From Elusimicrobiota bacterium (lineage in GTDB: Bacteria; Elusimicrobiota; Elusimicrobia; Elusimicrobiales; UBA9959): 44,710 bases of DNA. The notes under the pieces are model-generated. The model did not search any database and was not told the DNA's origin. It saw only the letters and a program-made list of their open reading frames with translations. The DNA lies in assembly GCA_036574205.1 (NCBI GenBank), contig JAINCQ010000002.1:1-44710 (forward strand). Reading direction: 5' to 3'. This document shows, in pieces, positions 3,673 through 31,600 of the stretch. The stretch's first letter is position 1; each line of letters starts with the position of its first letter. A program made the position numbers and the translations under genes.

Positions 3673-4878
3673 TCATAAAGTTTTACTTTTATGCGTTCCC
3701 ATAACAGATTTATAACATTTTTCAAAAATATTAAGTGCTCTATCAAGATGTTCTCTGGTATGAGTCGCTGTAACCACAACTCTTAAAAGGGTTCTTTTGG
3801 GAGGCACGGCAGGACTTATTACAGGATTTGAAAAAACGCCGTTTTCAAAAAGCATCTTCCACAACATAAATGTTTTTTCGTTGTCACCTATAAGTATCGG
3901 GATTATAGGCGTCTGGGTTGGACCAATGTTTGCTCCTATCTCCTTAAATTTTTTCAAAAGATATCTTGAATTATCCCACAATTTTTTCCTTCTCTCCGGC
4001 TCTGTTTCTATAATATCTATTGCTTTTGAAATCGTCGCCACACAAGAAGGGGGTAGAGCTGCTGAGAAAATCATTGATCTTGAAATATGTTGTATATAAT
4101 CTATAACATCAGCATCCCCAACAACAAACCCACCAACTGAGGCAAAACTTTTAGAACAGGTTCCAACTACAAGATCTATTTCACCTTTTTCAAGCCCAAA
4201 ATATTCTGAGGTTCCTCTACCATTTTCACCTAATACACCTGTTGCGTGAGCATCATCTACTATAAGTCTTGCTTTATATTTTTTGCAAACCTCAACTATT
4301 TGCGGTAATGGTGCAATATCCCCCTCCATAGAAAAAACCCCATCAACAATTACAAGTTTTCCTCTTCTTTTGTCAATAGATTTTAATACCTTATCAAGAC
4401 TTTGTACATCGTTATGTTTAAATCTTTTAATTTCAGCACCACTTAATCTTGCGCCATCTATTATGCTGGCATGATCAAGTTTATCCACTATAACCACATC
4501 CCCGTTTGAAGCAAGCGCCGATACTACCCCAAGATTCATCTGATATCCAGTAGCATATATTAAAGCCCTCTGTCTGTTCTTAAATTTTGCAAGTTTTCTT
4601 TCAAGCTCCTCATGAAGCACAGTATTACCATTTAAAAATCTTGAACCTGCAACCCCGGTGCCAAATCTTTCTATGGCTTCCATAGCAGCAGACTTCATCC
4701 TCGGATCATTTGCAAGCCCAAGATAATTATTTGATCCAAACATTATAAACCTTTTACCGCCTATCAAAACCTCTGGAGCCTGCTCAGATTCAAGTGCTTT
4801 AAAATATGGATATATCCCCTTTTCTTTTAATTCATTCACAATTGTAAAATTTCTTACTTTTTCAAATAAATCTGTCAT
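3673..4878 (-). CDS. spt: Serine palmitoyltransferase (alpha-oxoamine synthase family, PLP)
   Basis: GIYPYF..ESEQ, MFGSNNYLGL, GSRFLNG, DHASI, DGVFSMEGD, DDAHA, GTCSKS (PLP Lys). N-terminus resembles Bacteroidota SPT more than BioF or Kbl. Confidence 0.82.
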   Translation of the reverse strand: MTDLFEKVRNFTIVNELKEKGIYPYFKALESEQAPEVLIGGKRFIMFGSNNYLGLANDPRMKSAAMEAIERFGTGVAGSRFLNGNTVLHEELERKLAKFKNRQRALIYATGYQMNLGVVSALASNGDVVIVDKLDHASIIDGARLSGAEIKRFKHNDVQSLDKVLKSIDKRRGKLVIVDGVFSMEGDIAPLPQIVEVCKKYKARLIVDDAHATGVLGENGRGTSEYFGLEKGEIDLVVGTCSKSFASVGGFVVGDADVIDYIQHISRSMIFSAALPPSCVATISKAIDIIETEPERRKKLWDNSRYLLKKFKEIGANIGPTQTPIIPILIGDNEKTFMLWKMLFENGVFSNPVISPAVPPKRTLLRVVVTATHTREHLDRALNIFEKCYKSVMGTHKSKTL

Positions 4879-4901
4879 ATAATAAACATTGTATTATTTA
4901 T

Positions 4902-5369
4902 TTAAACTTTTTTCAATTGAGATTTTCTCAATATTGCTGTAGTAGACCTACCTTTTAAAAGCTTAACTATAACAACCTTTTTAGCAAATTCTTTTCCAAC
5001 AACATTTTCCTTTGAATAATCCCCTCCCTTTACAAGCACATCAGGCATTATCAGTTTTATAAGATTATAAGGGGTAAGAGAATTAAAAACTACAATATAA
5101 TCGACATATTCTATCGCAGAAAGAACTATTACTCTATCAGGCAGAGGATTTACAGGTCTTTCTTTACCTTTAAGCGCTTTAACAGAACGATCGCCATTAA
5201 GCCCCACAACCAGGATGTCGCCCATACTCTTTGCCTGACTTAAAACTTTAATATGACCACTATGAATTATATCAAAACATCCATTTGTAAAAACTATTTT
5301 TTTCCCCTCTCTTTTCATTTTTTTCAGTATCCTAATAAGTTTTTTTAGAGTTATTTCTTTTGTCTTCAT
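4902..5369 (-). CDS. rfaE2: D-glycero-beta-D-manno-heptose 1-phosphate adenylyltransferase
   Basis: VFTNGCFDIIHSGH, VVGLNGDRSV..LKG..RP, PDVLVKGGDY, GRSTT. Confidence 0.92.
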   Translation of the reverse strand: MKTKEITLKKLIRILKKMKREGKKIVFTNGCFDIIHSGHIKVLSQAKSMGDILVVGLNGDRSVKALKGKERPVNPLPDRVIVLSAIEYVDYIVVFNSLTPYNLIKLIMPDVLVKGGDYSKENVVGKEFAKKVVIVKLLKGRSTTAILRKSQLKKV

Positions 5370-5386
5370 ATAAAGTTTAAAGTTTT

Positions 5387-6766
5387 TTATTTACCAATGC
5401 TTGTTTTTTCCAATATCAGTTTGGGTATAAATTCTTCAAGATATTTAGTATGAACATTGGCTCTTTTGAAATTTAAGTCATTGAGTATTTCCTTGTGAAG
5501 CCCCAATGTTGTCTTTATCCCTTTTATTTGAAATTCATCTATTGCTCTTGCTGATTTTAATATAGCATCTTTTCTTGTAGGTGCCCAGATTATCAACTTT
5601 GCTATCATGCTGTCATAATATGGAGGTATTTTATAACCGGGGTAAATATGGGTATCAACCCTTACTCCATTTCCCATAGGGAAAACCACATCTGAAATAG
5701 TTCCAACATTTGGCATAAAATTTTTTTCCCAATCTTCTGCATTTATTCTGTGTTCTATTGAATGTCCTCTGAAACCATCTACATATCTGGAAGATATATC
5801 CATCTCAAAGCCCTGGGCTATTAAAATTTGTTCTTTCACAAGGTCAACCCCACATATTGATTCTGTCACCGGATGTTCAACCTGAAGCCTTGTATTTACT
5901 TCCATAAAATAAAAATTTTTATCTTCATCCATTAAAAACTCTACAGTTCCAACACCATGGTAATTAGCACTATCAGCAAGTTTTTCAGTAACCTTTTGCA
6001 GTTTTTTTCTAACATCAGGTGTAACAAAAGGTGAAGGAGTTTCTTCTATAAGCTTTTGATGTCTTCTTTGAAGCGTACAATCCCTTTCTGGGAAAGCCAC
6101 TACATTGCCATGAAAATCTCTGGCAAACTGTATTTCTATATGTCTTGGCTTATCTATATATTTTTCAAAAAACACATCATCGTTTCCAAAAGCAGCCTTT
6201 GCTTCTTGCTGAGCCATTTCAACTTCTTTAATAAGAGAACTTTCTTCTGTAACTATCCTCATACCCTTTCCACCGCCACCTGCCGCAGCTTTTATCATTA
6301 TAGGAAATCCTATCTTTTTTGCAATTTTAATAAAATCTTTTTTAACACAACCGTTAGAACCAGGGGTTATGGGTACCCCGGATTTTCTGGCAAGCTCTCT
6401 TGCCATAGATTTATGCCCAAGAAGTTTTATTGAATCAGGATTGGGACCTATAAAAATAAGCCCATTTCGTAAGCATTGTTTTGAAAATTCTGCGTTTTCA
6501 GAAAGAAAACCGTAGCCCGGATGGATAGCATCCGATTTTGTAATAAGCGCGGCTGATATAATTCTGTCCATTTTAAGATAACTTTCCTTTGCCGGGCTGT
6601 CGCCAATGCATATAGCTTCATCCGCCATATCAAGATGAAGGGAATTTTTATCCGCTTTAGAATAAATAGCAACAGATTTTATTCCCATTTCCTTTAAAGT
6701 CCTTATAACCCTAACAGCTATTTCACCACGATTTGCAACAAGAACTTTTTTAAATTCTTTTTTCAC
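5387..6766 (-). CDS. accC: Acetyl-CoA carboxylase biotin carboxylase subunit
   Basis: KVLVANRGEIA, IHPGYGFLSEN, KAAAGGGGKG, ERDCTLQRRHQK, FMEVNTRLQVEHPVTE, YYDSMIAK. GTG start at 6766 follows an AGGAGG SD and overlaps the upstream TAG. Confidence 0.95.
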   Translation of the reverse strand: MKKEFKKVLVANRGEIAVRVIRTLKEMGIKSVAIYSKADKNSLHLDMADEAICIGDSPAKESYLKMDRIISAALITKSDAIHPGYGFLSENAEFSKQCLRNGLIFIGPNPDSIKLLGHKSMARELARKSGVPITPGSNGCVKKDFIKIAKKIGFPIMIKAAAGGGGKGMRIVTEESSLIKEVEMAQQEAKAAFGNDDVFFEKYIDKPRHIEIQFARDFHGNVVAFPERDCTLQRRHQKLIEETPSPFVTPDVRKKLQKVTEKLADSANYHGVGTVEFLMDEDKNFYFMEVNTRLQVEHPVTESICGVDLVKEQILIAQGFEMDISSRYVDGFRGHSIEHRINAEDWEKNFMPNVGTISDVVFPMGNGVRVDTHIYPGYKIPPYYDSMIAKLIIWAPTRKDAILKSARAIDEFQIKGIKTTLGLHKEILNDLNFKRANVHTKYLEEFIPKLILEKTSIGK

Positions 6767-8400
6767 TATTCCTCCTTCAATTGTTTTATATTTATTGTCC
6801 TTTCCCATAAATTAACTATTCCCTCATACCTCAATATATCAAATCTTTTTTTGCCAGATTTTTTTACTCTTATTTCCACTTTATAAGATGGGCCATTTAG
6901 ATAATTACATACATATTCAGTTTCATATTTTAACTTTGAAACATCAAATGTCTTTTTTAATTCACTATCTATAAAATCATTAATATTAACTCCATCTATT
7001 TTGTAATTTTTAAGATATTTAATAGCATCAGAACAAGATTCTCCTTTAAGCATTGAAATCCTTTTTTCAGCTTCTTTTTTTTCAATTCCATCTTCACATA
7101 TCGAAATAGCACTGGCAAGATCGTTCATAGCGCTGTTGTATTTTTTGGTTGCAACATATCCATCAGCCCTTGCTAAAAAAACAGAACACTTGTTTTTAAT
7201 CGGGACATCTGGATTTGAAATAAGCAGATCATATATTTTAATAGACTCTTCAATCCTATCTGTAAAGCGAAGACTATCTGCATAATTGAACCTATACCAG
7301 AATAACTCTTCTTCATTATAGTATTTTATGGGATAGATAGCGGAAAGTTCAACTACCCTTCTGCAACTGTCTATTGCTTTATCATATAACCTCATAAAAT
7401 ATTCGCTCCAGCAAAGATATCCGCTTGACCGTGGATCAAGAGGATCTATAAGATACAATTTCTGGGACAAAAACAATGATTTTGAAAAATCCCTCTGCGA
7501 AAAAGCCTCATCTATATCTCTAAATAAATTCCACACATAAGGCCTTGTCCACACTCCATGTTCTTTTACAAAGTTAAGATAATCATCCCTCCACTGTCCA
7601 TCTCCTTCTTTCAGTTTGTAAACAATAACACTTTGATTCTCCTCAAAATAATATATTTTTAAATCTTTAAATTCCCAGCTACCAATCTTAGAATAATAAC
7701 TTTCACTTGCTTTTAGATAATCGGTAAAACTCACAATAGTTTTTGAATTATTGGAAAGATAATTATAGGCTTTTTCATAATTCCTTTCTTTTAGCGCATT
7801 TAAATATTTTTTTGCTGTATAAAGCAACTCATATCTTGAAATACTCTTTCTAACAAAAAGAAGATAAGACGCTATAATAGATACCACAAGTGAAGAAAAT
7901 ATAATTATAAAAATTCTCTTTTTATAGTTATCTTTTTTAACCTGTAAAGTACTTGTGATTGGCTGGGCATTTTTCTCATCAAAAGAAGAATTTTTAATAT
8001 AATCTTCAATCTTTTTCTTTTCATCCTCCGTTTTCTTAATTTTGCTTTCAACTTCTTTTTGTTCTTCAGCGTTGATTTTTTGTTTTTCATTTTCTTTTCG
8101 ATAGCTGTCGTCTTTCTTCCAAACACTTTCATTGATAGGCTCAAACTCAAGCTTTATTTTTTTTTCTTCTTTTGGCGGGATATCATCTTTGCGATTAGAA
8201 GAATCTATTTTTTTTTGGGGAGTAAGAGCAAGCAATTCACCACAATTGTCGCAGCGTGATTTTTCAACAGAATTTTCATGACCGCATTTACCGCAAATTT
8301 TTACTATCTCTCCACCACATTTTATACACACATCAGTTATTATATTTGGCTCATAACCGCATTTTTTACAAATTATTTTACTTGGATTTATATTATCCAT
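6766..8400 (-). CDS. Double zinc-ribbon, single-TM, TPR-containing membrane protein
   Basis: Four N-terminal CxxC pairs (CKKC, CIKC, CGKC, CDNC), charged linker, hydrophobic IFIIIFSSLVVSIIASYLLF, NTF2-like segment (YEKAYNYLS), then TPR-like helices. Confidence 0.75.
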   Translation of the reverse strand: MDNINPSKIICKKCGYEPNIITDVCIKCGGEIVKICGKCGHENSVEKSRCDNCGELLALTPQKKIDSSNRKDDIPPKEEKKIKLEFEPINESVWKKDDSYRKENEKQKINAEEQKEVESKIKKTEDEKKKIEDYIKNSSFDEKNAQPITSTLQVKKDNYKKRIFIIIFSSLVVSIIASYLLFVRKSISRYELLYTAKKYLNALKERNYEKAYNYLSNNSKTIVSFTDYLKASESYYSKIGSWEFKDLKIYYFEENQSVIVYKLKEGDGQWRDDYLNFVKEHGVWTRPYVWNLFRDIDEAFSQRDFSKSLFLSQKLYLIDPLDPRSSGYLCWSEYFMRLYDKAIDSCRRVVELSAIYPIKYYNEEELFWYRFNYADSLRFTDRIEESIKIYDLLISNPDVPIKNKCSVFLARADGYVATKKYNSAMNDLASAISICEDGIEKKEAEKRISMLKGESCSDAIKYLKNYKIDGVNINDFIDSELKKTFDVSKLKYETEYVCNYLNGPSYKVEIRVKKSGKKRFDILRYEGIVNLWERTINIKQLKEE

Positions 8401-8413
8401 AAAACTGAAAATT

Positions 8414-8782
8414 TTATTCTATTATAAAAAGGAGTTGAGAATATTCAACAACATCGCCATCATCCACACATACAACTTTTATCTTACCGTCTGTTGGAGA
8501 GACGACCTCAAATTCTCTATTTAGAACCTTAACATATCCTAGCACATCCCCTTTTTTTACAACATCTCCTTGTTTTATTTCACTGGATTTACCTTTTTTT
8601 GAAAAATTAAACAACCCCACTTCAGGCGAAACTACACTAACCAGATTTGAAACTATTTTAGTAGAAGATTTTTCTCCTTCTTTAACAAGAGAAACTTTGA
8701 AATTACCTTTTCTAAAAGAAAGTTCAACAAGATCTGAATCGCTAAACCATTTATTTATATCTGAAATTTCTTCAATTTTCAT
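8414..8782 (-). CDS. AccB/BCCP-like protein lacking the biotinylated lysine
   Basis: AccB-like N-terminus (SDLVELSF) and biotinyl fold (VVSPEVGLF, VKKGDVLG, SPTDGKI, DGDVVEYSQLLF). EAMKM is replaced by KVLNR. GGAGG SD present. Confidence 0.8.
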   Translation of the reverse strand: MKIEEISDINKWFSDSDLVELSFRKGNFKVSLVKEGEKSSTKIVSNLVSVVSPEVGLFNFSKKGKSSEIKQGDVVKKGDVLGYVKVLNREFEVVSPTDGKIKVVCVDDGDVVEYSQLLFIIE

Positions 8783-8824
8783 AAAACCTCCATTAAAAAA
8801 CTACAAGTTTTGACATAAAAAATA

Positions 8825-9241
8825 TTATAATCCTGCTTTTCCGGGCTCAAAAGGTTTATATATAAGTTTTGACACCTTTATCAAACTAACCTTTTCCTTA
8901 TTTTTTTCTATTGGATGATAATCGACACATATCACATGGGAAGACTTATCAGCAAATTCAAGTATAACCTGCCTGCAGGCGCCGCATGGAGTAGCGGATC
9001 TTGCCACCACACAAATGTCTTTAATAGACTTTTCTCCATTTGCTATAGCCTTAAATATTGCCACACGCTCTGCGCATATTGAAAGACCGAAAGAAGCATT
9101 TTCTATATTTGTCCCGGTATATATTTTTCCACTTCCCCCAACAACACTTGCTCCAACTGGATATCTTGAATATGGCGAATATGAGTTTTTCTGAGCTTTT
9201 TTAGCAAACTCTATTAATTTTCTCATTAATTTTCTATCCAT
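8825..9241 (-). CDS. cdd: Cytidine deaminase (homotetrameric type)
   Basis: YSPYSRYPVGA, GTNIENAS, CAER, PCGACRQ zinc motifs. Confidence 0.93.
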   Translation of the reverse strand: MDRKLMRKLIEFAKKAQKNSYSPYSRYPVGASVVGGSGKIYTGTNIENASFGLSICAERVAIFKAIANGEKSIKDICVVARSATPCGACRQVILEFADKSSHVICVDYHPIEKNKEKVSLIKVSKLIYKPFEPGKAGL

Positions 9242-9246
9242 TTTTT

Positions 9247-10104
9247 TTACCCTATTATCAATTTTAATTTAGCAAGATTTTTAGCGGATATATTATCTCT
9301 TGAAGTTAGCAGGGAATTTGGTGGCAGTTTCTCACAATTACAAGAAGGTTTAATAGATGAAATTTCTGGAATTGTTATAACCAAAAGTTTTTTAATGTTT
9401 TCAATATTCTTATGAATAGTATCTAAAACTTTCTCCTGAGATACTTCATCTTCTTCTTTCCAGCAGTCATAATCAGTGACAAGAGAAACAGGGACATAAT
9501 GCAAACCCGCTTCTTTTGCAACCTTACATTCGGTGGCAACAGTCATCCCAATTATTGAATATCCCTGCCTTCTATGATACTCACTTTCTGCTTTAGTTGA
9601 AAATTGAGGTCCTTCCATACAGACATAAACTCCCCCAAGATGTGATTTTATTCCGATTTCAAGCGCTTTTTTGTGTATAAATTTAGAATAATCCATACAG
9701 AAAGGATGAGCAAGGGGAACATGAGCAACAACCCCATTTCCAAAGAAAGTGCTTATCCTATTCTTAGTTTCATCAACAAACTGATCTGGAAATACAAAAT
9801 GAGAAGGAGCAAGATCTTCCTTTAAAGATCCAACCGCACTTACAGAAATGATAACCTCAACACCAAGCGATTTTAGCGCCCACATATTTGCCTGATGAGG
9901 AATTTCTGAAGGTAGTATGGTATGATTTCTCCCGTGTCTTGGCAAAAACAATACTGGAACCCCTGAAATCTTTCCATAAATCAAATTATCACTGGTTTTC
10001 CCAAAAGGAGTTTTGATTTTAATTTCTTTTTTATCTTTCAACTCCTCTATTTTATAAAGTCCGCTTCCGCCTATAACAGCAACTTTTGCTTTAAATTTTT
10101 TCAT
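9247..10104 (-). CDS. mtnP: S-methyl-5'-thioadenosine phosphorylase
   Basis: IGGSG, TPFG, PRHG..H, SAVGSL, EGPQFSTKAES, IGMT, VTDYDCW. ATG 10104 follows a GGGAG SD. Confidence 0.92.
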   Translation of the reverse strand: MKKFKAKVAVIGGSGLYKIEELKDKKEIKIKTPFGKTSDNLIYGKISGVPVLFLPRHGRNHTILPSEIPHQANMWALKSLGVEVIISVSAVGSLKEDLAPSHFVFPDQFVDETKNRISTFFGNGVVAHVPLAHPFCMDYSKFIHKKALEIGIKSHLGGVYVCMEGPQFSTKAESEYHRRQGYSIIGMTVATECKVAKEAGLHYVPVSLVTDYDCWKEEDEVSQEKVLDTIHKNIENIKKLLVITIPEISSIKPSCNCEKLPPNSLLTSRDNISAKNLAKLKLIIG

Positions 10105-10262
10105 AAATTCTCCCGTTATTAAACTCGGATAAATACCTGAAAACAATGTTAAATTATATTCTATAAAAAAATTGATTAATTATGGCATGCTGAAAAAGCA
10201 AGCAAGATATATAAAACTAGAAAAAATCAAAATCCTAAAATTTTATTTACTAATATTAAATC

Positions 10263-12200
10263 TTACTCATATCTCAGAGCTTCTATCGGTTCAAGATTAC
10301 TCGCTTTTTTGGCGGGCCAGAATCCAAACACAATTCCAACTAGAGCCGAAAAGGAAAATGACATTATTATAGCCACCCAGGGAATATCAATACTCCAGCC
10401 AGTAAATTTTCCAAGTATAATAGCAGCTCCACTCCCAAAAGCTATTCCTATCACTCCACCGACTACCGAAACTATAACCGCCTCTATCAAAAATTGCCAC
10501 AGAACCGCTCTATTTGTTGCCCCTATAGCTTTTCTTAATCCTATCTCTTTCGTTCTTTCAACAACACTTACAAGCATTATATTCATTATTCCTATCCCGC
10601 CAACTATAAGAGAAATCCCTGCTATTATTCCTAAAAGCAGGCTAAAGGTTTTTGTAGTTTGAGTAAGCATATTCTTTATATCCGAAAGATTAAAAACGGT
10701 TACAGGATCATCTTTATAAGAAGGGACATTCATAATTTTTCTCATAACTTTTGGAATATCCTCCATAGCTTTATCAATATAATCTGAATCTTCCACCTCA
10801 ACCCATATCTGATCAATATAATCCTTTCCAAATAATATCTTCATAGCTGTATTTACTGGAACTATTATAATATCATCCTGATCCCTCATCCCTGCCGCTC
10901 CTTTCATAGGCAAAATCCCTATAACTGTAAAATTCTTCCTGTTAATCTTAATCTGTTTTCCTACTGGATCTTCGTCACCAAAAAGATCATTGACAACCGT
11001 CTGTCCCAAAACACAAACTCTTTTAAGTTCTTTATTTTCCTGTTCAGTGAAAAATCTACCATAATAAGGATAAGCGTTTCGTAAAGATGGATAGTTAATA
11101 GAGCTTCCCATGACAGAAGTTCTGGTATTTTTATCTTTGTAAACCGCCTGAACATTTCCATTGACATTAACATCATAATTTACTATATAAGGAAGTCTTG
11201 AAATAATCATTTTTGGATATTCCAGCCTCAATCTTGAAACTTCCCCACGCCCTCCTCCAACTCCTCCAGTTGTTAGCTGTTGCGGAAATATCATAAGAAG
11301 ATTTGCCCCAAGAGACGAAAGGCTTTGCTGTATAACTTTTTGTGCTCCATATCCCACAGCAAGCATTGCTATAAGCGAACCAACCCCTATTATTATTCCA
11401 AGCATCGTAAGAAATGATCTTACTTTATTAGAAACTATTGATTTCAACGCAGTTTTTATATTTTCAAAAAACTCCTGAATATTAAACCTGGATTTCTTAA
11501 TCTCTATATCGTAATCTCTTTTTGTAATAAAATTTTTCCCATTTATTATATCTTCATAAATATTTCCGTCTTTTATCTTTATTATCCTTTTAGCATATGC
11601 TGCTATATCTGGTTCATGAGTCACTATTACTACAGTTTTACCCTCTTCATTAAGCTTTGTCAGAATCTCCATTATCTCCTTTGATTGATCGCTTGCTAAA
11701 TTCCCGGTCGGCTCGTCTGCAAGAACTATAAGAGGATCGTTCACAAGTGCTCTGGCTATAGCAACCCTCTGCTGTTGTCCTCCTGAAAGTTGATTGGGTT
11801 TATGAAAAATTCTATCTCCAAGACCAACCTTTTCAAGTAATTTTTTGCCAATTACTTCATCAACGCTTTTAAGATATATCTGGGGCAAACAAACATTACT
11901 AAGAGCTGTAAGCCTTGAAAGAAGATTAAACTGTTGAAAAACAAATCCTATTATTCTTGACCTAAGATACGCAAGTTCTGAGTCTGAAAGATTTGTAACA
12001 TCCCGTCCAAGAATTTTGTATTCACCGCTTGTTGGTCTGTCAAGAAATCCTATGATATGCATTAATGTAGATTTACCAGAACCGCTTGGACCCATTATTG
12101 CAACAAACTCCCCCTGTTCTATTTTAAGATCTACTCCTTTTAAAACCTCAAGTTCTTCCCCCATCTTATAAACCTTTCTTATTTTTTTAAGTTCTATCAT
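10263..12200 (-). CDS. macB: MacB-family ABC transporter, fused ATPase + permease
   Basis: Walker A GPSGSGKS, LSGGQQQR, LADEPTGNL, RSFLTMLGIIIGV, GGIGIMNIMLVSV.ERTKEIG, PIEALRYE. Confidence 0.95.
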   Translation of the reverse strand: MIELKKIRKVYKMGEELEVLKGVDLKIEQGEFVAIMGPSGSGKSTLMHIIGFLDRPTSGEYKILGRDVTNLSDSELAYLRSRIIGFVFQQFNLLSRLTALSNVCLPQIYLKSVDEVIGKKLLEKVGLGDRIFHKPNQLSGGQQQRVAIARALVNDPLIVLADEPTGNLASDQSKEIMEILTKLNEEGKTVVIVTHEPDIAAYAKRIIKIKDGNIYEDIINGKNFITKRDYDIEIKKSRFNIQEFFENIKTALKSIVSNKVRSFLTMLGIIIGVGSLIAMLAVGYGAQKVIQQSLSSLGANLLMIFPQQLTTGGVGGGRGEVSRLRLEYPKMIISRLPYIVNYDVNVNGNVQAVYKDKNTRTSVMGSSINYPSLRNAYPYYGRFFTEQENKELKRVCVLGQTVVNDLFGDEDPVGKQIKINRKNFTVIGILPMKGAAGMRDQDDIIIVPVNTAMKILFGKDYIDQIWVEVEDSDYIDKAMEDIPKVMRKIMNVPSYKDDPVTVFNLSDIKNMLTQTTKTFSLLLGIIAGISLIVGGIGIMNIMLVSVVERTKEIGLRKAIGATNRAVLWQFLIEAVIVSVVGGVIGIAFGSGAAIILGKFTGWSIDIPWVAIIMSFSFSALVGIVFGFWPAKKASNLEPIEALRYE

Positions 12201-12231
12201 ACTTCTCCTATCAAAGCTTTTAATAAAGTTT

Positions 12232-13206
12232 TTATAGCTTTCTCATTATCTGCCTCGGTTGATTTTTGCTTCTTTGAGGCATAAATGGAATTTTACCTCC
12301 CTCAAACGTCTGTTTTGAGTACTTCTTGATTTTAAGATATATCTCATCGCCATCGTTAAGTCCTTTTTTCACTTCAACTATATCATTGTAATCCTTCCCT
12401 ACCGTTATTTCTTTCTTTACAGGTTTTTTCTCCAAATCAAAGCCTGTTATAACATAAGTTTTCCCATCTTTTGAATATTCAACAGCATTGTTTGGAACTC
12501 CAATAATTGCTTTCTGAGAAACAAGTATTTTCACATTAGCTGTCATCTGAGATTTTAAAAAAGATGGGGTGTTATCAAGTCTTATCTTCACTCTATATAT
12601 TATAACACTACTAACGTTTTTACCCTCATCAAGTATTTGAAATACCCTGCCGGTTATCTGGGTATCAGGATATGAATCAAGTGTTATAAAAACTCTATCC
12701 CCAATTTTAACCTTGCCTATATCAGACTCATCAACATTTGCATTGGCTATCAAGGTATCTGACATGGCGAACAAAACCGTCGATGCTCCCAAAGTCTGCC
12801 CCTCAACTATGTTTCTTAAAATTATTCTTCCACTTATAGGAGCAAGGACTTTTATCGGCTTATAACTATCCTCCCATTTTTTATACTCCTCTTCACTTAT
12901 AGATCTTGCGGCATCTAAAATAGCGACCCTGTCTGAAGAACTCATAAGACACAATACATCTCCGCTTTTTACATTATCTCCTTCTTCAACAAAAATTTTT
13001 TCTATTCTGCCAGAGGAAGGTGGAAGTATTTCAACCCTGTTTAAAGGTTCAATCTGCCCGGTTGTTTCAACATAATCAGCAACATTATTTATTTTTACTT
13101 CTATTTTTTTATAAAAAAATTCATCCTGTGGATCTTTCTTTCTTTTTAAAAAATAAATTCCCGCTATTATAGCTACTGCAGATATTAAAATAACTACTTT
13201 CTTCAT
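12232..13206 (-). CDS. macA: Efflux periplasmic adaptor (MacA-like, short hairpin)
   Basis: N-terminal anchor, lipoyl half-motifs (SGRIEKIFVEEGDNVKSGD; APISGRI), VDESDIGKVKIG; located between tolC and macB. Confidence 0.85.
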   Translation of the reverse strand: MKKVVILISAVAIIAGIYFLKRKKDPQDEFFYKKIEVKINNVADYVETTGQIEPLNRVEILPPSSGRIEKIFVEEGDNVKSGDVLCLMSSSDRVAILDAARSISEEEYKKWEDSYKPIKVLAPISGRIILRNIVEGQTLGASTVLFAMSDTLIANANVDESDIGKVKIGDRVFITLDSYPDTQITGRVFQILDEGKNVSSVIIYRVKIRLDNTPSFLKSQMTANVKILVSQKAIIGVPNNAVEYSKDGKTYVITGFDLEKKPVKKEITVGKDYNDIVEVKKGLNDGDEIYLKIKKYSKQTFEGGKIPFMPQRSKNQPRQIMRKL

Positions 13207-13258
13207 TTTTCCTCCCGCTTTTTTTCATTTTTAGACTTCCATCTATGTTAAAAAAATC

Positions 13259-14518
13259 TTACTGAGAGATCTTTTCTCCAATAAGGCTTTCAAGCGATAT
13301 TTTTCTAAGATAAACATTTTTAATATATTCAGTGTAATTTTGTCTTGAATCAACAAGATTTTGTTCTATATTCTCAAGATCTATATAACTCATTTTCCCG
13401 GCCATATATTTTATCTGAGCTTCTTTATATCTTTCTTCATTTGCCTCAAGCAATATAGCATATGTTTTTACAGTAGAAACGGAATTTAGATACTCGTTAT
13501 ATGCATTTTGAATATCATTTTCAGCGCTTATTATATAAGCGTTAAGCTTCTCTCTTGTTGATCTCAGGGTTTCCTTAAGCATATCTACATTGTTTTTATA
13601 ATATGTTATACCAGAAGAAAAAAGCGGAAACGAAAGACCAAGCCCAATAGACCATGTCATATTTGTATCTGGAAATTCAGATTTTCCAGAATATCCCCTG
13701 GATGCAGAAAAACTGAGTTTTGGTAGCCAATCATATTTATTTGTTTTTAATTTTTCCTCAGCAAGAAGTATGTTCTTTTCAAAAATTTTATAAGCAGGTG
13801 TAGATTTGATATAATCGATTATTTTATCCCGCTCAAATAGTATTTGAGGCATAGAAATATTTTCTCTAACTAAAATTTCATCCTTAATTTTAATTCCTAT
13901 TGCGTTTTTAAGATTGTTTGATGCTATTTCAATCTGTCTTTTTGATTTATCAAGATTAAGTCTTGCCATTTCATATTGCGCTACAGCATAAAGCATATTC
14001 CCTTTAGATTCAAATCCACTTTGATATTTAAGTTTTATCAAATCCGCATTATTTTTTCTTATCTCAACTATTTTCTCATTGACCCTGTAGGTTTCCTGCG
14101 CAAAAAGAAGATTATAAAAGGCAGTATAAATATTTTTTCTTAAATCTATAAGGTAGCTTTCATAGTTTAACTGTGCAATCTCATAGTTTATTCTGGAACT
14201 TTTAATTGTATAAATAGAGTCATAATCAAAAATATTTTGAGAAACGCTTGCTGAAAGTGAAAAAGTATTAGAAGTCTGGTTGTTATCTCCGCCAGATCTT
14301 GAAAAATTATTTGAAAGGTTAATCTTTGGAAGATAGGAGTTAAGCGAAGAGTAATAAGAATATTTAGCAGATTCAAGCTCGGCAAGCTTTGATTTTAAGG
14401 CTGGATTATTTTCAAAAGCTAAATTAATACATTCTTTAAGAGTAAGCTCAATGGCTTTGGACAAATCTATAAAAGTAAAAAACAACAAACATACAAGAAT
14501 TACTTTGTTTTTTTTCAT
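13259..14518 (-). CDS. tolC: TolC-family outer membrane efflux protein
   Basis: Signal peptide, LTLKECINLAFENNP, two LPK(I/L) beta repeats, LSFPLF, KYMAG..SYID. Confidence 0.88.
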   Translation of the reverse strand: MKKNKVILVCLLFFTFIDLSKAIELTLKECINLAFENNPALKSKLAELESAKYSYYSSLNSYLPKINLSNNFSRSGGDNNQTSNTFSLSASVSQNIFDYDSIYTIKSSRINYEIAQLNYESYLIDLRKNIYTAFYNLLFAQETYRVNEKIVEIRKNNADLIKLKYQSGFESKGNMLYAVAQYEMARLNLDKSKRQIEIASNNLKNAIGIKIKDEILVRENISMPQILFERDKIIDYIKSTPAYKIFEKNILLAEEKLKTNKYDWLPKLSFSASRGYSGKSEFPDTNMTWSIGLGLSFPLFSSGITYYKNNVDMLKETLRSTREKLNAYIISAENDIQNAYNEYLNSVSTVKTYAILLEANEERYKEAQIKYMAGKMSYIDLENIEQNLVDSRQNYTEYIKNVYLRKISLESLIGEKISQ

Positions 14519-25407: not shown

Positions 25408-27858
25408 ATGGATATGATAAATGAGATAAAAAATTTAATGAAAGAAAAAATTTTAATATTTGATGGAGCTATGGGAACTGAGATAAACAAAAGATTTTAT
25501 AAAAATGATTTACTTCCAAACGATTTTCTAAATCTTTCAAATCCACAGTTAATTGAAACCATTCATCTTGATTATATAAAATCAGGCTGTGATTTTATTG
25601 AAACAAACACTTTTAACTCAAATCCAATATCACTTTCAGATTTTAACAAAGAGAACCAAACTGTTGAATTAAATAAAAAAGCAGTTGAGGTAGCAAAATC
25701 TGCTATTAAAAAATCAGGTAAAAAAGTTTTTATAGCGGGGTCATCTGGTCCCCTTAATATATCTCTTTCTCTTGGCTCAAAATATAGTTTTGATGAGGTA
25801 AAGAAAGCATATATAAAACAGGCAGAAGTTTTATTAAAGGAAGGAGTAGATCTGATAATCTTTGAGACAGCTCATGATATAATTAACCTCAAAGCAGCAA
25901 TAATAGGAGTTATTGAAATACTAAATAGATATGATAATCTTCCAGTAATTGCTTCTTTTACTTTAAATTCAAATCAATCGATTTTAAGCGGAGACGATAT
26001 AAAAGCAATTTATTCAAATCTTTCTCACTTTGATATAATTGCTATTGGGATAAACTGTTCAAGCGGACCTGATAATATGGAACTTGCTATAAAAAACTTA
26101 TCAGAGTGTTCTCATTTACCAACTCTAATTATGCCAAACGCCGGTTTCCCGGATGAAAACGGCAATTACAATTTATCTCCCGAAGATTTTACGCAAAAAA
26201 TAATAGAATATGCTCAAAATGGATACATAAATATTGCTGGAGGTTGTTGCGGCACAGGACCTCATCATATATCTGAGCTTTCAAAAAACCTTAAAAATAT
26301 AAAACCCAGAAAACTGAACAAAGAGAAGAAATTTGTTTTATCGCATAAAATCGCCATATTTGAAGATGAAATAGAAAAACCATATCTGGCTGCTGAAAGA
26401 TTAAATACCCTTGGAAGCAAAAAGTTTAAAAAATTAATAGAGGAAAATAATAAATCCGAAATAATTTCAATAACAAAGAAACAAATAGAAAAAGGCGCGC
26501 ATATTTTAGACATATCTTTTATAAATACTGAAAGGGTGGAGATTGATGATCTAAAAAATTTTCTTCCTGAAATATCAAAAAACTCTAAAATACCTTTGAT
26601 GATAGATTCAACTAATATCAATATCCATGAGGAAGCGGCAAAACTAACTGGTTCAAAACTCATAATAAACTCTGTAAATTTTGAAAACGGTGATGAGAAA
26701 CCCAAAAAAGCCATTGAATTAAGCAAAAAATACGGATCCATAATAGTCTGCGGACTTATAGATGAAAAAAAAGAAATGGCATTTAACTTTGAAAGAAAAA
26801 TGGAGATAGCTACAAGAGCATTTGATTTTTTTTCAAAGCACATCAGTAATAAATTTATTATCTTTGATCCACTTGTCTTCCCTATCGCAACCGTAGAATA
26901 TCCTCTTTCCGCTTATGATACACTTAAAGCAGTAAGCGAAATTAAAAAGAGATTTAATGTTAAAACGATACTTGGAATAAGCAATATTTCATATGGATTA
27001 AACTCACTTGCAAGAAAATACTTAAACTCTGTCTTCCTTTATCTTGCAATTAAAAATGGGCTCGATATAGCGATAATAAATATAGGCGAAAAGATTCCAT
27101 TTGCTTTGATTGACGAAGAGATAAGAGAGTTATGTATATCAATAATAAACGGAAATAAAGAAGATATTAAAAGATTGCTAACCTTAACACAGAACAAAGA
27201 GTTGGAAAAAGAAACCATAGAAAGCCTTACCATAGAAGAAAAATTAAAAAAATCAATAATGGAAGGTATTGGAGATATTGAATCAATATTAAAAGAATTA
27301 ATAAAAAAATACTCAGCCTCTGATATAATAAACCGCTTTATAATAGGCGGGATGAATGAAGTTGGAGAAAAGTTTTCCAGAGGAGAATATATAGTAACAG
27401 AGGTTTTATCATCAGCGGCAGTTGCTCAAAAAGCTATAGATTTTATAAAACCATATCTCAGTAAAGAAAATTTTAAAAGAGGAAAACTTTTAATTGCAAC
27501 TGTTAAAGGCGATGTACACGATATAGGTAAAAATCTGGTTTCAATCATATTTGAGTCAGCTGGATTTGAAATAATTGATCTTGGGACAAAGGTAGAACCT
27601 CAAATTATAGCTCAAAAAGCTTGTGAAATAAAACCTGATATAATAGGACTTTCAGGGCTTCTGTCAAAATCAGCTGAATATATGATTGAAACTGCAAAGA
27701 AACTAAAAGAAAATAACCTTAATATTCCACTTCTAATCGGTGGCGCTGCAATGAGTGAAAAATTTGTTAATCTAAAAATTATTCCTGTATATGAAAAAGC
27801 ATTTTATGCAAAAGATGCCATAGAGGGATTAAAAAAAGCAGGTGATTTACTAAAATGA
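25408..27858 (+). CDS. metH: B12-dependent methionine synthase: Hcy, pterin, cap and B12-binding domains (no activation domain)
   Basis: IFDGAMGT, ETNTF, GINCSSGP, PNAGFP, GGCCGT, ERLN..GSKKF, PLMIDS, GISNISYG, KGDVHDIGKN, GLSGLL, IGGA. True start may be ATG 25414. Confidence 0.93.
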   Translation: MDMINEIKNLMKEKILIFDGAMGTEINKRFYKNDLLPNDFLNLSNPQLIETIHLDYIKSGCDFIETNTFNSNPISLSDFNKENQTVELNKKAVEVAKSAIKKSGKKVFIAGSSGPLNISLSLGSKYSFDEVKKAYIKQAEVLLKEGVDLIIFETAHDIINLKAAIIGVIEILNRYDNLPVIASFTLNSNQSILSGDDIKAIYSNLSHFDIIAIGINCSSGPDNMELAIKNLSECSHLPTLIMPNAGFPDENGNYNLSPEDFTQKIIEYAQNGYINIAGGCCGTGPHHISELSKNLKNIKPRKLNKEKKFVLSHKIAIFEDEIEKPYLAAERLNTLGSKKFKKLIEENNKSEIISITKKQIEKGAHILDISFINTERVEIDDLKNFLPEISKNSKIPLMIDSTNINIHEEAAKLTGSKLIINSVNFENGDEKPKKAIELSKKYGSIIVCGLIDEKKEMAFNFERKMEIATRAFDFFSKHISNKFIIFDPLVFPIATVEYPLSAYDTLKAVSEIKKRFNVKTILGISNISYGLNSLARKYLNSVFLYLAIKNGLDIAIINIGEKIPFALIDEEIRELCISIINGNKEDIKRLLTLTQNKELEKETIESLTIEEKLKKSIMEGIGDIESILKELIKKYSASDIINRFIIGGMNEVGEKFSRGEYIVTEVLSSAAVAQKAIDFIKPYLSKENFKRGKLLIATVKGDVHDIGKNLVSIIFESAGFEIIDLGTKVEPQIIAQKACEIKPDIIGLSGLLSKSAEYMIETAKKLKENNLNIPLLIGGAAMSEKFVNLKIIPVYEKAFYAKDAIEGLKKAGDLLK

Positions 27859-28598
27859 GTTTTAAACCAGATTATATACCAGAACCACAATCTCTTGAAA
27901 GAAAAGTATTTAATGAATTTGAACTAAATATACTTTTTAATAACCTGAACTGGGATATGCTTTTTTTAAGATTTTTTAACCTTAAAAAGTCCCAGCAAGA
28001 AAAAATCAATGAAACAAAAAAGGAGATGGATGAGATAGGAAAAGAAATAATAGCAGAGAAGTATTTAAAAGCAAAAGGAATTTATCAGATTTTTAAAATA
28101 AAAAACTATACTGATTACATAGAACTTATTGAAAATGAAAAAGTCATAGGCAGGATAGAATTCAATAAAACCTCAAATCATTTGCTTTCTGATTTTTTAG
28201 CTGATGAAGATTTTTTAGGTGTGGCATCTGTGTCTGTGTTTATAGACGAAAAAAAATTTCAAAAATTATTTGAAGAAAGAAAATATAGAAAACTTTATAT
28301 AATTAACTCAATTTCAATAATGATGGCTGAAAGTTTTATAGAAGTTTTGCATTATTTTGTTCAAAAAAACTTCAAAAACGAAGATGAAAATGATTTTTCT
28401 AAATTTCCACAATATATCCAGCAAACTAAAAGATATTCACCAGGATATCCATCAATAGATATAAAATTTAATAAAACATTACATGAAGTTTTAAAAGCAA
28501 ATGAAATTGGGAGTAAAATTACAGAAAGCTATATGATTGAACCAGAGTCTTCAGTTCAAGCAATAATACTACACAACCCAAAAGCATTTTATATATAA
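27855..28598 (+). CDS. Stand-alone methionine synthase activation (AdoMet-binding) domain
   Basis: MAESFIEVLH, RYSPGYPS, ITESYMIEPESSVQA...HNPKAFY; ATGA overlap with metH. Confidence 0.88.
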   Translation: MSFKPDYIPEPQSLERKVFNEFELNILFNNLNWDMLFLRFFNLKKSQQEKINETKKEMDEIGKEIIAEKYLKAKGIYQIFKIKNYTDYIELIENEKVIGRIEFNKTSNHLLSDFLADEDFLGVASVSVFIDEKKFQKLFEERKYRKLYIINSISIMMAESFIEVLHYFVQKNFKNEDENDFSKFPQYIQQTKRYSPGYPSIDIKFNKTLHEVLKANEIGSKITESYMIEPESSVQAIILHNPKAFYI

Positions 28599-28682: not shown

Positions 28683-31600
28683 TTAATGTATTATTCCTAT
28701 TTTCTTGGTGATTGTTTTTGATCCTTTTGGACTTGAGGCTTTTATTCTAACTATATATCCTCCCTTTGAAACAATCCCTCCCAATTCATTTTTCCCATTC
28801 CAGTCAATATAGTTAGAACCAAGCTTTGCTCCAGTTTGACCTCTTGAAAATTTAAACTGCTTAACAAGATTGCCCAAAAGATCGTATATATCAATAGTAA
28901 CCTCAGCATCATCATTAAGTATATATGCTATTGTAACCTTCCCCTCCCTTCCGCCTTTTCTTAAATCAACCGGGTTTGGATAAGCGTCTACTTTTTGGAT
29001 TAACTCCTGACCAATTGTTGTCGCGGCTGGTTTTGACACTTCAGACCAATCAGAGTTTAACCCTGCAAAATTCCAGGCTCTGATTCTATAAGTGTAATAA
29101 TTACCAAGGGGTCTTGGAGTCTCGCCTGGATTTACAGGATCTCCAATCGAATATAGATTATTGATTCCTCCACCATATTTATATCCCGGTATTCCGGCTA
29201 TGGTTTTCCATATAGGACTTGTGTTTTCCCTTTCTTGTATTTCATAAGCCATAATATTGGACTCATTATCTGTTGAAGGAGTCCATTTAATAGAATATGA
29301 CTGTCCGGCAGCAACACCTTCGGCAACCTGTGGTTGTGGCGCTCCCGGAGTAGTTGGTTTGGTGGTATCAATTCTGAATATAAGAACAGGCGTTCCTTTT
29401 TCGTTTGGAATATAAGTTCCTCCGGATGTAACAGCCCTGACAGAAACTATATATGCCCTGTCTGATACAAATTCTCCCCATGGGGTATGCATAGCAGGAT
29501 ATGATCCCTGAATCCCTCTTTCAATTATTCTAAATGTTTTATCATCTATTTTTGAAACAAGCATTATCTCGCTCCCAACATAAACCACACCTTCCTGAGC
29601 AAAATTAGAAGCATCTTTAACTGTAAAACTGGATGAGTCAAGTGTTATTCTTGATGTAAGAGTTGTTATATTTCCGGGTGAAAGCGATATATTTTTAATG
29701 GAACCAATTAAATTCTTTCCAGCTGGCTCCCAGAGTTTTTTAATTCCTGAGACATCATTGTAATTTTCGCCAAGAGTAACCTCATATCTATCTATATTTG
29801 TTGTTGATGGCTGCCATCTTGCTGTAAGTTCATTTGTCTTATAGCTCCATACGCTTGGCACAGCGCCAACCTGAGGTACTGAATAATAAAGCTTTTGATT
29901 TTGATATCTATCGCCTATAAAATAAAGTGGTTCGCCCCAACCATTGTCAATTATCCTATCAGGTATATAATCCAAATTGGATTCAAAATCTATTATTCTG
30001 TCTCCATCTATATCAAATGATGGTAAAGGCGAATTATTAAGTGAAATATTAACACATTTTTTGGCATTAAAATAATCAAAATTATCAGGGATGCCATCAC
30101 TATTTATATCTATAAGCGGCTCATCTGGTCTACAATATGTTTGTGTAGAGCCATAAATCCATTTTGACGTATCAGCAATTGGATATCCATTTGAATTTAA
30201 AACAATATTTCCGCTTGAATCAACAAGAGCATAGGCTGGATAACCATTATCTGCAAGTATTATAGGACTATACACCGGCGTAAGTCGTATATTACCGGGC
30301 ACAATAGTAATCTGCCTTGTTTGAATTGGATATCTATCAGCAAAATACTGACCAGCTGCAAGTGGCAAACCGCCCGGTCCTTTTATATCAGAGAAATTAT
30401 TAATCTTAATCCCTGCTTTATGGCCTATTATGCTTGAAGAAGAAAGATCAATATCTCCAGTATTTATCAATATATGCACTATTGTAGTATTAGTTGTTAT
30501 GGTTATATACGGCAAATCGCCTTCTTTAATATCTACAGATATGCCGTATTTAAATGGGACAACAGATGAGTGAGTCGTTATGCCAAGACGATAATCAAAT
30601 AGAGGAGAAAAAGCTCCGTCATTATCTATATCCTTCCATATACTAACAGCTTTAAAATCTCCATCGCCAACACCCGTATAGCTTTCTTCTATTGTTCCAC
30701 TCTGATAGAAAACAAACTGCCCGATCCTTACAAAATCCTGATTGGTTTTTATTTTAAGAGTCATAACTGGCAAATCTTTTTTGTTTGTTTCTGCTGAAAG
30801 TGGAGTTACATCTATACTATTAACACTTACATACACCGCTCTTATTGGGATTAAACTTGAACTATATGGGAAGGAGGAAGTACCGGTCCCTTGAGGATTA
30901 AATTTAGATATATTTGTGTATATTGTTTGATTAACGTTATGAGGATAATTAACATTAACCCATGAATTATCATTTATAAGGGCACCAACCTTATTTCCTG
31001 GTATTGCAGTTTCACCTATATCATAAGCCACAAAGAAAGTCTGAGGTAAAGGAGATAATATTTGAGTTTCTGAAAGGAAAATTTCAGTTTGAAGTTCAAG
31101 GAGTTTTTCCTGATCATATAGATCAACCTTTACAATCTTGCTTTCAGGAGGATGGTTTATAATAGGTGTATATCTTTCTCCCAACTTCATTCCTCTTTGT
31201 GTTATCATAAGAGAAGGTTTACCATAGGAGGAGTTATAACTTATTGACGAGTAATAAACAAGTTCCGCATCGTTAAGCCATAGATAGCCATTTGAAGGGA
31301 ATCCTTCGGTTGATTTAACCACAAGCTCAAACGGAGAAGTTTCACTTGCTGTATCAGTAGAAGAAAACATATTCACAGATTTAGTCTCTTTCTCTGATAT
31401 ATTCACATCATTTACATCAAGCATATCGTTTTGATTTGCATCTCTGTATATTTTTATGAATTTCACATCACTGTTTTTACCAAACGGCGCGGCCGGGTCG
31501 TTAGATGCTCCTGTTCTTCTAAGCTTAATTGAATACCATTTGGCAAAACCAGCTTCTGTTTTCATATTAAATCTTAAAATAGGAACATCTCTCTGTGCCT

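Follow-up and report, generated by a model that had tools for sequence, protein, structure and literature searches.

On the minus strand of the window, by which we mean the whole 44.7-kb stretch of DNA that was analyzed, a short open reading frame encodes a protein that resembles the biotin carboxyl carrier protein (BCCP, AccB) and lacks the biotinyl lysine. One gene separates it from accC, and two conserved neighbors lie upstream. The features of the region are as follows.

8414..8782, minus strand: BCCP/AccB-like open reading frame without the biotinyl Lys, 122 aa plus stop
8787..8791, minus strand: GGAGG, a ribosome-binding-like site, 4 nt 5' of the ATG of the BCCP-like frame
8675..8782, minus strand: N-terminal AccB-type domain, residues 1-36, with a helix at 3-14 and strands at 18-24 and 29-34
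8417..8641, minus strand: biotinyl-fold domain, residues 48-122, with a thumb-length insert at about 60-69
8516..8530, minus strand: hairpin K85-V-L-N88-R89, aligned with canonical E-A-M-K-M; Asn88 codon AAT at 8519-8521
6766..8400, minus strand: 544-aa zinc-ribbon protein, between the BCCP-like gene and accC, found at 4 of 4 loci
5387..6808, minus strand: accC, ACC-type biotin carboxylase, catalytic motifs intact
8825-9241, minus strand: cytidine deaminase, conserved upstream neighbor of the block
9247-10146, minus strand: MTA/purine nucleoside phosphorylase-family gene, conserved upstream neighbor of the block

The BCCP-like protein has the AccB/BCCP architecture in full: an N-terminal domain, a short linker, and a biotinyl fold. 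Pfam Biotin_lipoyl (PF00364) matches it with an E value of 1.8e-10 and 41 bits (cut-off 22.1), residues 50 through 121 covering profile positions 3 through 73 of 73; the top NCBIfam model is TIGR00531 BCCP, at 49 bits and under the equivalog cut-off of 115.2. HHalign comparison of the lysine-less family profile with 40 canonical BCCPs gives a full-length alignment that includes the N-terminal domain (probability 99.95%, E = 6.6e-38), and in a library profile search the family profile also aligns with canonical BCCP N termini as separate stretches. The linker is ∼30 residues shorter than in canonical BCCPs by profile-profile alignment, in keeping with the short linker described in an earlier note on this DNA. 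An AlphaFold2 model, for which the input was 39 family sequences, has a mean pLDDT of 85 and values of 95-97 over most of the biotinyl domain. The top Foldseek match of this model is the biotinyl domain of Escherichia coli BCCP (1bdo; TM 0.87 by target), which superposes with an rmsd of 1.3 Å over 76 columns at 29% identity. The claim of an intact biotinyl fold is thus borne out by the PF00364 match, the model confidence, and the similarity to 1bdo. Sequence and model taken together indicate that the product of 8414..8782 is a descendant of AccB (BCCP) that keeps both the N-terminal domain and the biotinyl fold.

The difference lies at the tip of the hairpin. Read in frame, this stretch is G82-Y-V-K-V-L-N88-R89-E-F-E-V, with Asn88 encoded by AAT at 8521-8519. 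When a profile of the BCCP-like protein and six relatives is compared with solved biotinyl domains, ungapped HMM alignments put the family k-v-l-n-k on e-a-m-k-m; the same placement is obtained in the profile-profile alignment to 40 canonical BCCPs. The AlphaFold2 model has strands at residues 80-86 and 89-94, so that the turn L87-N88 falls at the canonical Met-Lys position. All three agree with the earlier alignment of E-A-M-K-M to K-V-L-N-R, and the position given for the Asn codon was also correct. In the seven aligned closest sequences, the window protein included, the Lys column reads N,N,N,D,N,G,N (Lys in 0 of 7), and in three syntenic loci (L001, L002, and L003) it reads N, N, and S. 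A sequencing error or single-base change, which the earlier note had already doubted, is rejected because the entire motif differs and the loss is common to the orthologues. From the alignments and the model, the protein cannot be expected to take biotin at the hairpin tip, where Asn88 is followed by Arg89. Since it fails both the Lys requirement and the TIGR00531 cut-off, it should not be filed as a functional BCCP; the name “biotin carboxyl carrier protein,” which several of the 120 listed family matches carry in public records, is probably a functional misannotation.

A word-indexed search found six relatives of the BCCP-like protein with 65-72% identity and lengths of 118-123 aa. A profile search run exhaustively over 1.84 billion representatives yielded 4054 matches at E ≤ 1e-3; among the best 150 library representatives, 105 have the canonical Met/Phe-Lys, 34 are without Lys at that column, and 11 have Lys there without the preceding Met. 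The Lys-less library matches are short (median 127 aa vs. 155 aa). A profile of 39 Lys-less sequences matches 414 proteins at E ≤ 1e-5, and every organism-named row among the 120 matches listed (8 of 8) belongs to Elusimicrobiota, with Elusimicrobium simillimum (on a contig of 1.93 Mb) among them. Judged on these named members, the Lys-less BCCP-like family is phylum-wide in Elusimicrobiota. In an alignment of 121 members, the composition of the canonical Lys column is S81 A11 K9 N7 G7 T4 D1 Q1; these members are 90% clusters weighted to gut lineages, and the counts reflect that sampling.

A FastTree tree was built from 149 of 157 proteins (the window protein, its six relatives, and the 150 library matches), leaving out eight long or multidomain rows (P0017, P0028, P0057, P0124, P0131, P0137, P0138, and P0156). 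One split, with a support of 96, has 41 noncanonical rows and one long-branch canonical row on one side, and 98 canonical and nine noncanonical rows on the other. Because so short a protein leaves many forks unresolved, we draw only two conclusions from this tree: the Elusimicrobial family is one group, and a few lineages outside it have lost the lysine as well.

Further proteins with BCCP architecture but no biotinyl Lys fall outside the Elusimicrobial group: P0017, P0035, P0037, P0039, P0087, P0090, P0099, P0107, P0111, and P0132. Several of these ten read Leu-Gly in place of Met-Lys; P0017 has two tandem Lys-less domains, and in P0111 the motif is canonical except that Arg replaces Lys.

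To locate the constraint on the domain, column entropy was compared in representatives clustered at 50% identity. For the five hairpin columns, 98 canonical BCCPs give a mean of 0.58 bits, compared with 1.68 elsewhere, and both Met and Lys are at 100%; in the family (n = 35), the same columns have a mean of 2.46 bits against 1.84 for the remaining domain. Positions of the fold are retained in the family (G56 and G82 at 100%; G64, G78, and F119 at 97%), and conservation is complete or no lower than 90% at W12, D17, L18, and E20 of the N-terminal domain. By column entropy, no part of the domain varies more in the family than the hairpin, and the constraint has moved. Between the window and the three syntenic loci, the BCCP-like gene has a pN of 0.18-0.32 at a saturated pS of 0.66-0.89, and its dN/dS is 0.07-0.25 where dS is computable, inside the range of the neighboring genes. 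No frameshifts are found in the gene across the four loci. The Lys-less state is conserved and under purifying selection. The earlier note had allowed that orthologues might keep MKM while this copy decayed; instead, the loss is common to the orthologues, the closest sequences are without the Lys, and pN is low.

The gene order is shared among the window, L001, and L002: a phosphorylase-family gene, cytidine deaminase, the BCCP-like gene, a gene for a ∼540-aa protein, accC, and then cytidylyltransferase, aminotransferase, and GNAT genes. L003 has the same order as far as its contig extends, with the BCCP-like gene, the zinc-ribbon protein, and the start of accC. The block of BCCP-like gene, zinc-ribbon membrane protein, and accC is kept in 4 of 4 loci (in L003 only the start of accC is present), which supports the earlier statement that the BCCP-like protein is encoded with accC. 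Identities between the window and L001, L002, and L003 are 71, 69, and 54% for the BCCP-like protein and 58, 55, and 56% for the inserted zinc-ribbon protein; for accC they are 79 and 75% with L001 and L002. The upstream flanks of the block differ among the loci, and no functional link to the block is implied for the neighboring cytidine deaminase and phosphorylase-family genes. A scan of 4800-10400 shows no minus-strand terminator-like site and promoter-like sites at chance level (30 vs. 23.4 ± 4.3), which is compatible with cotranscription and says nothing further.

AccC scores 645 bits on TIGR00514 (cut-off 626.5), and its top solved relatives are biotin carboxylases (1e-141 to 1e-151). The residues of its catalytic motifs, which we take to match the named E. 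coli residues, are invariant in 40 Elusimicrobial AccC sequences. Among the best 120 AccC matches, the organism-named rows are Elusimicrobia in 22 of 22 cases, with Elusimicrobium minutum Pei191 at 62% identity. The longest accC frame shares 43 nt with the gene upstream, and its N terminus extends ∼18 residues beyond that of most orthologues; from orthologues of 452-456 aa, the real start probably lies ∼15-18 codons further in. L001 (record DYIF01000004.1) is titled Elusimicrobium minutum, and its AccC (11993-13360) is only 61% identical to that of Pei191, so the species label of this metagenome-assembled genome looks too narrow.

The 544-aa protein begins with a double zinc ribbon containing eight invariant Cys, followed by a variable Lys/Glu-rich linker, one hydrophobic segment at approximately residues 166-188 (assigned by eye from the alignment), and a conserved C-terminal part that is NTF2-like/TPR-like. 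Its orthologues lie at 10374-11996 in L001, 10513-12153 in L002, and 4054-5673 in L003. The nearest Atlas clusters are Elusimicrobiota-only, and weaker neighbors are TPR and NTF2-like proteins. We know of no link between this zinc-ribbon membrane protein and carboxylases.

The window has no accA, accD, or birA by Pfam and annotation. A six-frame scan of the window and L001-L003 (47 kb) with a canonical BCCP profile returned nothing beyond the Lys-less genes and some weak HlyD-type matches; the motif E-[ASVT]-M-K-[MLIVF] was not found in any of the six frames of these loci. In Lombard and Moreira 2011 (PMC3199775), E. minutum is listed with an ACC-type biotin carboxylase (BC) and with no ACC carboxyltransferase (CT)-alpha or CT-beta, and BCCP domains are left unanalyzed. 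If accA and accD are missing from E. minutum, this lineage may have no ACCase of the E. coli type, and the label “ACC subunit” may be wrong for it. The second positive mark stands under the acyl-CoA carboxylase beta subunit (“XCC su beta”) in the E. minutum row of additional file 2 (“+”) and under urea carboxylase (“UCA”) in the Elusimicrobia entry of the printed Table 1 (“+++”; PMC3199775), one of the two being misaligned. Our full-text search, which covered a limited set of papers, found no description of a bacterial Lys-less BCCP, and coverage of the biotin enzymes of Elusimicrobia only in Lombard and Moreira 2011; neither accA/accB/accC nor KO terms occur in the supplements of a 2024 paper on Endomicrobia.

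By descent the closest known system is bacterial AccB; in kind it is plant BADC. The Elusimicrobial protein is like bacterial AccB/BCCP (TIGR00531; 1bdo, 4hr7) in its three-part architecture, its fold, its thumb-length insert, and its gene position upstream of accC. It differs in having Leu87-Asn88 instead of Met-Lys at the tip, in the shorter linker and the sub-threshold TIGR00531 score given above, in the 544-aa gene inserted before accC, and in the family-specific conservation of W12, G64, and G82. Plant BADC proteins have 25-30% identity to BCCP, have no biotinylation motif, are not biotinylated, and bind BC and BCCP, and they are described both as inhibitors and as an assembly “glue” in two papers (PMC12706156, PMC11926652), the second of which calls them “unique to the plant htACCase.” Like BADC1-3, the protein described here is a BCCP homologue without the biotinylation motif, and here it lies beside a biotin carboxylase. 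BADCs are additional paralogues that accompany functional BCCP1/2 in an enzyme with alpha/beta-CT, whereas the Elusimicrobial protein is bacterial, forms its own branch in the FastTree tree, and stands in the accB position; its lineage may also have neither a canonical BCCP alongside it nor a carboxyltransferase of the E. coli type.

The earlier proposal of a bacterial analogue of BADC proteins therefore stands in part. A Lys-less, fold-intact homologue under selection does lie beside accC, but the gene looks like an altered accB rather than an extra paralogue, given its full AccB architecture, its accB position upstream of accC, and the phylum-wide family. It is probably the altered accB itself and not a side copy, in a presumably independent bacterial lineage.

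Three other systems were compared. AccE, the epsilon subunit of actinobacterial acyl-CoA carboxylases, is a small noncatalytic subunit that assists the assembly of a biotin-dependent carboxylase (PMC3199775, PMC11926652). AccE is not known to have a biotinyl fold. A lipoyl domain or GcvH-type carrier was rejected, since the lipoyl-Lys column holds Asn88 and lipoyl enzymes match poorly (sucB, 18.5 bits). The HlyD/MFP barrel-sandwich proteins are alike in a marginal Biotin_lipoyl_2 match (30.2 bits vs. 29.8), confined to residues 69-83; the BCCP-like protein differs from them in having no signal, membrane segment, coiled-coil hairpin, or β-barrel domain, and this identity was rejected because its full-length match is AccB.

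From homology, fold, the missing lysine, conservation, selection, and gene placement, we infer that the Lys-less protein would still bind AccC via retained AccB surfaces and would act as a noncatalytic subunit of it. It may organize or stabilize the carboxylase oligomer, or it may limit access to the carboxylase. The carboxyl carrier of AccC would then be another biotinylated protein or domain encoded elsewhere, one candidate being a carrier tied to the beta-type gene of acyl-CoA carboxyltransferase listed for E. minutum. Such action would resemble that of plant BADC proteins, with a presumably independent origin via alteration of accB itself. We consider this whole reading, in which a nonbiotinylatable AccB descendant is a noncatalytic partner of AccC and the biotinylated substrate is separate, to have an even chance of being correct.

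Complex prediction for AccC with the BCCP-like protein gave weak support, with a score of 0.49 (runs 0.49, 0.49, and 0.64), the best of three controls reaching 0.02; at least 82% of contacts are common to the runs, and the partner pLDDT is at least 75. Of 157 solved complexes, 116 pass the mark used, as do 2 of 215 mismatched pairs; at 0.60 or under, however, only 18 of the 157 pass, together with both of those mismatches; because the prediction was run on custom alignments, these benchmark counts hold only roughly. As a BC-BCCP complex has already been solved (4hr7), the pass may reflect likeness or memory alone.

A bolder form of the proposal has, in our estimate, a slim but appreciable chance. 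Here Elusimicrobiota would be without any biotinylatable AccB, and AccC would work in an obligatory complex with the Lys-less descendant of AccB, for which the conserved zinc-ribbon membrane protein is a possible tether; the carboxyl group would pass to a foreign, non-AccB carrier (PccB/decarboxylase-type), or no protein-bound biotin would be involved. If true, this would place the malonyl-CoA supply of the phylum on an as yet undescribed carboxylase architecture.

AccC and the Lys-less protein might also be a repurposed pair that works without AccB-bound biotin in a lineage having lost AccA and AccD. The carboxylase might use free biotin, another acceptor, or a foreign carrier, and the Lys-less protein would be an activator or adaptor that it cannot do without, not a regulator. 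The family is phylum-wide and apparently the sole AccB-architecture protein seen beside accC, and the strict conservation of the AccC catalytic residues implies that the chemistry is retained, as this idea would require. An intact BC nonetheless implies a biotin substrate, and we know of no precedent for an AccC pair that works without AccB-bound biotin. The entries for E. minutum in Lombard and Moreira 2011 (PMC3199775) bear on both sides: an ACC-type BC without ACC CT-alpha or CT-beta favors repurposing, but a carboxyltransferase beta-type gene needs carboxybiotin, so some carrier probably exists. We regard a repurposed pair as unlikely.

A role independent of AccC, either autoregulation of the operon or action as a nonmodifiable decoy that titrates biotin protein ligase, seems to us somewhat less probable than that. 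The N-terminal part of E. coli AccB is reported to autoregulate its operon, and the N-terminal domain is the most family-specific conserved part here (W12, D17, L18, and E20); the fold that a ligase would recognize is also kept. Set against this, Pfam and NCBIfam searches show no DNA-binding motif, the window is without birA, and the idea is drawn purely from E. coli biology.

It is very improbable that the protein is still a carboxyl carrier modified at a shifted lysine, whether at the +1 position, as could apply to most relatives, or at Lys85. The +1 position is Lys in 85 of the 121 family members and the canonical column is Lys in 9; both counts favor this idea, and the +1 lysine counts against our main reading. 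The window protein, however, has Arg89 at +1 and P0260 has Gln, and there is no Lys from −1 to +1 in 27 of the 121 members and none from −2 to +3 in 10, including the window protein. In the model, Lys85 is part of strand 80-86, and the seven closest sequences vary at its column (K,K,K,N,R,D,S); the hairpin as a whole is the least conserved stretch of the biotinyl domain. Moving the lysine of E. coli BCCP by one residue reportedly abolished biotinylation, in work by Reche and colleagues in 1998. We therefore reject a shifted-Lys carrier for the window protein, where Arg89 occupies +1, and regard it as unlikely for the family, given its variable hairpin.

A functionless accB remnant or an assembly error is scarcely credible: although the residue that defines the function of the family is gone, the length is constant (118-127 aa in nearly all of the 121 members), the four loci are free of frameshifts, pN is low at saturated pS, the fold residues are invariant, and the full motif differs rather than one base, and we reject a pseudogene on the constant length, low pN, and conserved fold positions.

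Textbooks treat the carrier lysine as invariant in biotin-dependent carboxylation. It is at 100% in our 98 canonical representatives. To our knowledge, Lys-less BCCP homologues have been studied only in plants, as BADC, where they affect oil yield. If the Elusimicrobial protein is a noncatalytic partner of AccC, a phylum-conserved family with an intact biotin carboxylase would show that noncatalytic BCCP homologues evolved more than once, and the bacterial family would offer a small, tractable system for subunit action on carboxylase. The reported absence of accA and accD raises the question of which biotin carrier AccC uses and where malonyl-CoA comes from.

Other parts of the window hold several further features. 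Directly upstream of the block, 10263-14518 (minus strand) encodes a MacB-type ABC transporter, an HlyD-family adaptor, and an outer-membrane efflux protein; these genes are found upstream of the block in the window and L001 and are absent there in L002 and L003, and the adaptor is the sole other weak biotin-lipoyl-like match in the window. A giant open reading frame of at least 5300 aa occupies 28683-44585 (minus strand) and is open to the window end at 44708. It has no Pfam family in its first 4900 residues, only weak C-terminal matches, to FlgD_ig (8.8e-06, below the cut-off) and Por_Secre_tail, and a G+C content of 34-38% compared with 27-31% in the 14-24 kb stretch; its product may be a very large secreted or surface protein. 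At 25408-28598 (plus strand), methionine synthase seems to be divided in two: the homocysteine, pterin, and B12 domains lie on an 816-aa protein, and the activation domain is on a separate, overlapping one of 247 aa.
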